A stretch of 64,000 nt of DNA from Candidatus Woesearchaeota archaeon (GTDB lineage Archaea > Nanobdellota > Nanobdellia > Pacearchaeales > GW2011-AR1), in contig CAZETU010000006.1 of NCBI GenBank assembly GCA_964514585.1, positions 10,161 through 74,160 of the forward strand, in the 5' to 3' direction. Made by a program: the position numbers and the translations under genes. This document shows, one piece after another, positions 9,975-10,055 of the stretch. How positions within the stretch are numbered: the stretch's first letter is position 1; every line of letters starts with the position of its first letter. Under the pieces are notes generated by a model that saw only the letters and a list, made by a program, of their open reading frames with translations, was not told the DNA's origin and searched no databases.

Positions 9975-10055
9975 GCCCACATCGTATAATGGTATTGCAC
10001 CGGTCTAGAAAACCGGGCCTGAAAGGGCATCCCCGTTCGATTCGGGGTGTGGGCG
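9975..10055 (+). tRNA. tRNA-Ser(AGA)
   Basis: Acceptor GCCCACA/TGTGGGC, anticodon stem CCGGT/ACCGG with loop CTAGAAA (anticodon 10007-10009 = AGA), long variable arm GCCTGAAAGGGC, T-arm CCCCG-TTCGATT-CGGGG, G73. Confidence 0.9.

Follow-up and report, generated by a model that had tools for sequence, protein, structure and literature searches.

In eukaryotes, the serine tRNA with the anticodon AGA becomes an IGA reader through the deaminase ADAT2/ADAT3, and the tRNA-Thr(AGU) of Mycoplasma is a family-box tRNA in which A34 is unmodified. Mollicutes that have lost TadA use tRNA-Arg(ACG) (PMC3711424), and without modification A34 prefers U as its partner and pairs to a modest degree with C (PMC11066159). 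In E. coli, an engineered Ser-tRNA(AGA) (serX G34A) is expressed, unmodified, and tolerated (bioRxiv 10.64898/2026.05.15.725136). According to reviews, Archaea lack every ANN anticodon and have no known A34 deaminase, and an A34 tRNA is found only where such a deaminase is also present (PMC8007984, PMC8879553). The preliminary description of the DNA considered here, which presented archaea as lacking both A34 tRNAs and the deaminase, agrees with what these reviews say. A 2026 preprint survey counted three ANN anticodons among 10,517 archaeal tRNAs from 220 archaeal genomes (bioRxiv 10.64898/2026.05.15.725136). A literature search for conserved A34 tRNAs in DPANN archaea found no report of them.

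The window, by which is meant the whole 64,000-nt stretch of DNA that was analysed, carries such a gene, a tRNA-Ser(AGA) at 9975..10055 on the + strand. The source assembly is 1.04 Mb long in 18 contigs, has about 37% GC, and is 89.65% complete. The host is a DPANN archaeon, as judged from four lines of evidence: tRNA introns, which lie after 37/38 in Gly-TCC, Tyr, and Glu and also occur in tRNA-Ile(UAU); a full-length archaeal RNase P RNA (80.7 bits, E=4e-23, just under the gathering score); public records with the same tRNA, labelled Candidatus Woesearchaeota, Candidatus Pacearchaeota, or Nanoarchaeota archaeon; and an XPD-like helicase beside the tRNA that is 68-78% identical to the relatives' copy. 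The first three of these also bear out the earlier assignment of the DNA to an archaeon. One contig of the assembly with 52% GC (C15) had no rRNA match.

The gene encodes a class II tRNA of 81 nt with G73 and no encoded CCA, as seen by ARAGORN, Rfam RF00005, and comparison with orthologues, and its anticodon occupies 10007..10009 (+), with A34 at base 10007. The RF00005 score is 47 bits against a gathering threshold of 29, and the match runs over model positions 1-71, the full length. This match appeared only in a search of the short region with laxer filters; the run over the whole window at the gathering threshold returned the neighbouring GGA gene only, the AGA gene being missed probably through the speed filters. 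The acceptor stem (GCCCACA/TGTGGGC) has all 7 bp paired, and the 3-bp D stem and the 5-bp T stem (CCCCG/CGGGG) are fully paired as well. The 5-bp anticodon stem CCGGT/ACCGG encloses the loop CTAGAAA with A34 inside it, and the variable region of 14 nt includes a fully paired 4-bp stem. G18G19, the T loop TTCGATT, and the discriminator G73 are all present. The acceptor stem and D arm are near-identical to those of the GGA, UGA, and CGA genes of the same genome, in which a SerRS gene was also found. The preliminary description had seen here a complete class II cloverleaf that departs from the GGA copy in its anticodon, variable, and T arms yet stays paired in them, and it had argued against decay. 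The ARAGORN call, the Rfam score, and the full pairing of the stems support the first point, comparison of the two sequences the second, and covariation over the orthologues, which speaks for structural selection on an intact gene, the third. The gene at 9975-10055 is confirmed as an intact serine tRNA gene.

Conservation was assessed in the genus and beyond it. An anticodon-loop pattern listing all UCN-reading serine tRNAs found tRNA-Ser(AGA) in 24 of the genus's 49 species-level genomes, and BLAST against 60 relatives, followed by ARAGORN on the matches, recovered the gene in 14 other species-level genomes of the genus. Outside the genus, it was seen in one of about 320 other genomes of the family (in a neighbouring genus) and in none of 45 from the other families of the order, the search pattern being tuned to the D arm of this gene, so that diverged versions could escape. 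Among the 22 distinct AGA sequences, 99.4% of the cloverleaf stem cells hold standard pairs, and 9 of the 24 pairs show both-sided (compensatory) changes, such as 5:68 (A-U, G-C, C-G) and 6:67 (C-G, U-A). Not one of 500 shuffles equalled the real values, and slid controls paired at 27-49%. The loop CTAGAA is invariant in 22/22, in part by construction since the sequences were sorted and found by that loop. The gene is under purifying selection.

Because the gene is conserved and covaries across relatives, both error and decay can be rejected. A sequencing error at base 10007 is ruled out by the orthologous sequences in other genomes, all of which read CTAGAA; the relatives carry AGA at this locus, and the case of TGA or CGA standing there instead, which the preliminary description had named as one that would overturn its reading, did not arise. 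A pseudogene is ruled out by the 99.4% pairing with compensatory changes over 22 sequences. The true decayed tRNAs of the lineage, a Leu remnant in this genome and a Ser-like gene with the anticodon AAA in the congener G023, look different: they contain mismatches, and their T or D loops are broken. In many independent assemblies, the AGA gene has the same neighbours (XPD-like helicase, SNase, and Ser-GGA), and a search of viral contigs for the gene gave no match. A tRNA borne by a virus or mobile element is ruled out by the chromosomal synteny, the host-type serine tRNA body, and the zero viral-contig matches.

The arms of the gene point to where it came from. Its anticodon arm, CCGGTCT-A-GAA-ACCGG, equals that of a tRNA-Ser(UGA) except at base 34 (G022, G016, G029, G062, G011, and one genome from outside the family), and for this reason the gene likely arose from a UGA-type duplicate by a T34-to-A change. 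A tree built with the anticodon masked places the AGA sequences among the UGA and CGA genes and sets GGA apart as a clade of its own, with weak resolution given the short sequences. The UGA gene of the CCGG type and the AGA gene are both present in G062 and G011, and AGA is therefore a separate paralogue. The obvious alternative, a G-to-A change in the neighbouring GGA gene, was ruled out since the arms are of the UGA type and the masked tree, short and weak as it is, agrees. Serine isoacceptors also tend to have like acceptor stems within one genome, a pattern that suggests concerted evolution of these stems.

This genome has a serine set of AGA, GGA, UGA, CGA, and GCU. The preliminary description had proposed a check for Ser(TGA/CGA), and separate UGA and CGA genes are indeed present. 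All four UCN isoacceptors occur in 16 genomes, and GGA is retained in 19 of the 24 AGA-bearing genomes, so the mutual exclusion of A34 and G34 in one codon box, which the preliminary description had given as the norm, fails here. In the other five (G017, G035, G070, G072, and G006; 83-92% complete), neither the pattern nor a direct GGA-gene search found GGA; in G006, the AGA gene sits at the start of a contig. Four of the five share tRNA features, and in two of those four the AGA gene adjoins tRNA-Met. A shorter variable arm of Ser(AGA) is seen in G017, G035, G070, and G072 (genus g1) and in G199 (genus g80); within this short-variable-arm subclade, the check for GGA covered the first four, and GGA was found in none of them. 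The main contig of G070, 635 kb assembled from pieces, holds 38 tRNA genes, including Ser AGA, UGA, CGA, and GCU with no GGA; its GC content is 26.5% (37% in this genome), and UCC makes up 4% of its UCN codons. Because GGA was not found there, AGA appears, on gene content, to have replaced GGA in an AT-rich subclade of at least four genomes (G017, G035, G070, and G072). Such a route would start with a duplication and a change of anticodon, pass through coexistence, and end, where genomes are most AT-rich, with the G34 gene being lost.

The rest of the tRNA complement shows how sparingly other boxes are served. In both this genome (G000) and G070, Ala, Pro, and Arg-CGN have a U34 tRNA only, and the Leu box has AAG and UAG, GAG being the one not found. 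Since whole boxes are read by few tRNAs, relaxed wobble reading is normal for the lineage. Judging from gene content, Leu(AAG) seems to stand in for Leu(GAG), but Ser(AGA) is in most cases an addition beside Ser(GGA). In the subclade where GGA was not found, and in this Leu box, the C-ending codons need A:C or U:C reading, or else inosine, a pattern known from organisms that use I34.

The usual G34 reader of UCU and UCC, tRNA-Ser(GGA), lies 2.2 kb upstream of the AGA gene, at 7716..7796 on the + strand (ARAGORN; Rfam 53.9 bits). GGA is found near AGA in many relatives, with a spacing of 37 nt to 3.5 kb. Two genes lie between them here. The first, at 7841..9052 (+), is an ORF of 403 aa with no Pfam or PHROG match and a 33%-identical relative in L040 only; the second, at 9056..9868 (-), encodes a P-loop ATPase of 270 aa with weak similarity to Zot, KaiC, and packaging ATPases (Pfam Zot 6e-06, weak PHROG). 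The ATPase, 68-81% identical, is also found between GGA and AGA in G013 and G015, and other relatives have only 37-900 nt between the two tRNA genes. The interval 7841-9868 between the two serine tRNA genes behaves as a variable insertion site. The only repeats around the two genes are AT-rich ones of the kind expected by chance.

A putative promoter of the AGA gene is the TATA-like box TTTAAAA at 9927..9933 (+), 26 nt before a decayed direct copy of the 5' end of the tRNA. Comparable boxes (TTAAAAA, TTTAAAAA, and TTTATAAA) precede AGA in at least 15 relatives, about 23-26 nt before the transcribed unit. The decayed copy (GCCGCATCGTATTGG versus GCCCACATCGTATAATGG) occupies 9960..9974 (+), directly before the AGA gene, and there is no further copy of the tRNA 5' end within the window. 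By comparison with the relatives, 9960-9974 is probably the remnant of a leader element that is intact in them. The element follows the TATA-like box and is made up, in order, of an exact copy of the first 12-17 nt of the tRNA, a small hairpin, and an imperfect reverse complement of the copy, and a spacer of 4-8 nt then leads to the full tRNA. It stands before Ser-AGA in L002, L011, L014, L016, L032, and L041, before GGA in L002 and L014, before TGA in L013, L019, and L021, and before CGA in L019, so that each of the four UCN isoacceptors is represented. Each copy follows the acceptor sequence of the tRNA that it precedes, and two tandem leader units are found in L016 and L032. Possible identities are a minihelix-like leader, a pairing partner of the tRNA 5' strand, or an integration footprint.

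As for decoding, we consider it reasonably probable that A34 is unmodified and that the tRNA reads UCU and, weakly, UCC. By this account, T34 would have become A in a duplicated tRNA-Ser(UGA) gene, adding a member to the serine set of one DPANN genus. SerRS does not inspect the anticodon, and it is predicted to charge the AGA tRNA with serine because the acceptor stem, D arm, long variable arm, and G73 are common to the serine isoacceptors of the genome. The unmodified A34 would form a Watson-Crick A:U pair with UCU, the commonest serine codon, and would also read UCC to some extent, giving one tRNA per UCN codon: AGA, GGA, UGA, and CGA. In the most AT-rich relatives, the loss of GGA would leave AGA as the reader of the pyrimidine-ending codons. 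The expression of the gene, its serylation, the unmodified state of A34, and the codons read are all things we infer from the sequence.

Several known systems resemble this predicted arrangement in part. The eukaryotic tRNA-Ser(AGA) has the same anticodon and the same class II serine architecture, and the GGA-less subclade has the eukaryotic isoacceptor set, AGA, UGA, and CGA. However, this genome has no detectable ADAT or TadA, most AGA-bearing genomes of the genus keep G34 and A34 together, a combination that eukaryotes avoid, and the archaeal gene arose recently, in one genus, from a UGA-type gene. The unmodified A34 tRNAs of Mollicutes and Mycoplasma share with it a small AT-rich genome, a four-codon box, and the lack of a deaminase, and they are the likely working model; their A34 replaces G34, whereas the archaeal A34 is mostly an extra fourth isoacceptor, and the domain and the amino acid differ. 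The engineered Ser-tRNA(AGA) of E. coli likewise places a serine AGA beside a serine GGA, but it is a laboratory construct, whereas the archaeal gene is natural and has been kept through speciation. Here an A34 tRNA has been maintained over the divergence of two dozen species, mostly with a G34 partner, and this genome has no visible deaminase. It offers a natural test case for the question of why unmodified A34 tRNAs are avoided.

The preliminary description had tentatively linked the gene to heavy use of TCT in the + strand genes. In the long ORFs of this genome, the UCN box is made up of UCU 45%, UCC 9%, UCA 28%, and UCG 18%, and its U:C ratio is 4.9, the other boxes having 2.2-5.1. UCU is the commonest UCN codon in every sampled genome of the genus. 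The excess of UCU over the Thr, Pro, and Ala boxes is 0.98-1.62 in four AGA-bearing genomes and 1.10-1.31 in five AGA-lacking ones, a small sample of related genomes of 100-1,000 kb each. The proposed link was not borne out, the genome-level excess being the same with and without AGA, and it is not specific, U-ending codons being preferred in all sampled genomes. Any of these genomes would suit an A34 reader, and no codon-usage trace of a selective benefit is left.

The search for TadA and other CDA-fold genes that the preliminary description had proposed was run by profiles, tblastn, and signature, and none was found in this genome. Searches of this 89.65%-complete genome with the profiles PF00383, PF14437, and PF00962 gave no match; PF02137 gave none either, but the control for PF02137 was likewise silent everywhere, so that this last result carries no weight. 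With tblastn, six CDA-fold proteins of congeners produced matches in this genome only at E>0.2, and no ORF in it has the HAE...PCxxC signature. A deaminase could lie in the missing part of the genome. CDA-fold genes of two kinds are present in 36 of the genus's 49 genomes. One is a fusion of about 350 aa that joins an N-terminal P-loop kinase-like part (NCBIfam PRK08356-like) to a C-terminal dCMP-deaminase domain (for example, L055:907-1974, +); it occurs in about 30 genomes of the genus and is absent from this one. The other kind is small, with about 150 aa, and includes the ORFs at L054:1339-1794 and L056:1339-1803. Of three small types checked, two match guanosine/guanine deaminases from end to end (1.5e-42 and 6.9e-34) and TadA over the catalytic core only (about 1e-24 to 6.6e-24 and 6e-21, respectively), and the third is ambiguous (1.4e-25 versus 3.9e-24). 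Against the NCBIfam TadA cut-off of 150 bits, the small proteins score 71-85.

Of the 24 AGA-bearing genomes, 12 have such a small TadA/GuaD-like gene, as do 10 of the 25 that lack AGA, and a co-occurrence of AGA with a TadA-like gene was rejected on these counts. CDA-fold genes of any kind, mostly the fusion in AGA-bearing genomes, are found in 21/24 versus 15/25 (Fisher p=0.05; p=0.21 in genomes at least 83% complete), a test on related, non-independent genomes whose completeness bears on both counts. Neither the searches in this genome nor the co-occurrence counts in the genus point to a dedicated A34 deaminase, although one may exist.

Three other explanations can be weighed against an unmodified A34. 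In one, A34 is converted to inosine. The enzyme might be one that sequence searches do not recognise as TadA/ADAT, or it might be found among the scattered GuaD/TadA-like or dCMP-deaminase-like proteins, and IGA would then, as in eukaryotes, read UCU, UCC, and UCA. Several observations lean this way. The set of AGA, UGA, and CGA without GGA in G017, G035, G070, and G072 is eukaryote-like, three of these four genomes have a small CDA-fold gene (about 152-157 aa), and Leu(AAG) without Leu(GAG) in G000 and G070 is a pattern shown by organisms that use I34. The commoner occurrence of CDA-fold genes with AGA can be counted here too. Archaea also convert m1A57 to m1I57 in tRNA by a deaminase that, to our knowledge, is still unidentified, and this counts for inosine as well. 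We nevertheless think inosine unlikely. This genome has no CDA-fold or adenosine-deaminase gene, half of the AGA-bearing genomes (12/24) have no small deaminase, and the small proteins resemble guanine/guanosine deaminases over their whole length and TadA only at the catalytic core. In every box the NNC codons are used least, and nothing points to codon adaptation of the I34 type. Moreover, G34 and A34 stand together in 19/24, a combination not seen where I34 is used (PMC8879553). It is doubtful, in our estimation, that some DPANN archaea make wobble inosine at A34 of Ser(AGA) and Leu(AAG) through a deaminase not recognisable as TadA/ADAT; if they did, it would be the first wobble inosine in Archaea, contrary to the view that they have no I34, and an independent origin of I34 decoding.

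The gene might instead be kept for a role outside decoding, as an integration site, a source of tRNA fragments, or a spare under gene conversion, or it might be near-neutral. In genomes that have GGA, AGA is on paper fully redundant; UCU usage is not shifted, and about half of the genus does without the gene. The P-loop ATPase, the 403-aa ORF, and copies of the tRNA 5' end accumulate beside the serine tRNA genes, whose acceptor stems are alike within a genome in a way that suggests concerted evolution. We hold this to be improbable, since in 22 diverged sequences the loop does not vary and compensatory changes preserve the helices, since the lineage's real decayed tRNAs (the Leu remnant and the AAA gene of G023) do not look like this, and since GGA seems to be dispensable beside AGA in one subclade. 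An artefact of assembly or binning, foreign DNA of viral or bacterial origin, or a private error at base 10007 would be easier to entertain in an assembly of metagenome type, with 18 contigs and a weakly virus-like ATPase adjoining the gene, but it can hardly be the explanation: the same gene and neighbourhood in many independent assemblies refute it, no viral contig matches, and the body of the tRNA is the host's own serine type. An unmodified A34 reading UCU is the explanation that we lean to.

Some other tRNA genes came to light in the course of the analysis. The tRNA-Leu(AAG) of this genome (G000:C1:115822-115904, -; L061) has a normal cloverleaf, and about 80 nt downstream of it lies the decayed 3' two-thirds of a Leu tRNA (G000:C1:115677-115742, -), which has a broken T loop and an anticodon-stem mismatch and is an example of a real pseudogene. 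In G023, a gene at L030:1501-1581 (-) joins a serine body of the CGA type to the anticodon AAA, with G18 changed to A and one anticodon-stem mismatch. It is probably a pseudogene; if it were active, it would put serine at UUU codons.

A cluster of four tRNA genes at G000:C2:154900-158300 (L119 and L062) consists of Cys-GCA, Glu-TTC with a short intron, Thr-AGT, and Thr-CGT (A1-U72). Its tRNAs duplicate ones elsewhere in the genome, and the cluster may be of mobile-element or viral origin. The Thr(AGT) in it is the third A34 call of the genome. It was rejected as a sign of a general A34 habit since it has an 8-nt anticodon loop or a C-A mismatch and no homologue: none was found in 48 congeners at E<=1e-8. 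Lastly, a gene called by ARAGORN as an intron-bearing Ser(tga), at G000:C10:4091-4209 (-) (L065:192-310), was rejected as a serine tRNA. It is really a tRNA-Ile(UAU), of class I with the loop CUUAUA and, by the Rfam alignment, a 45-nt intron, and G070 has the same gene.
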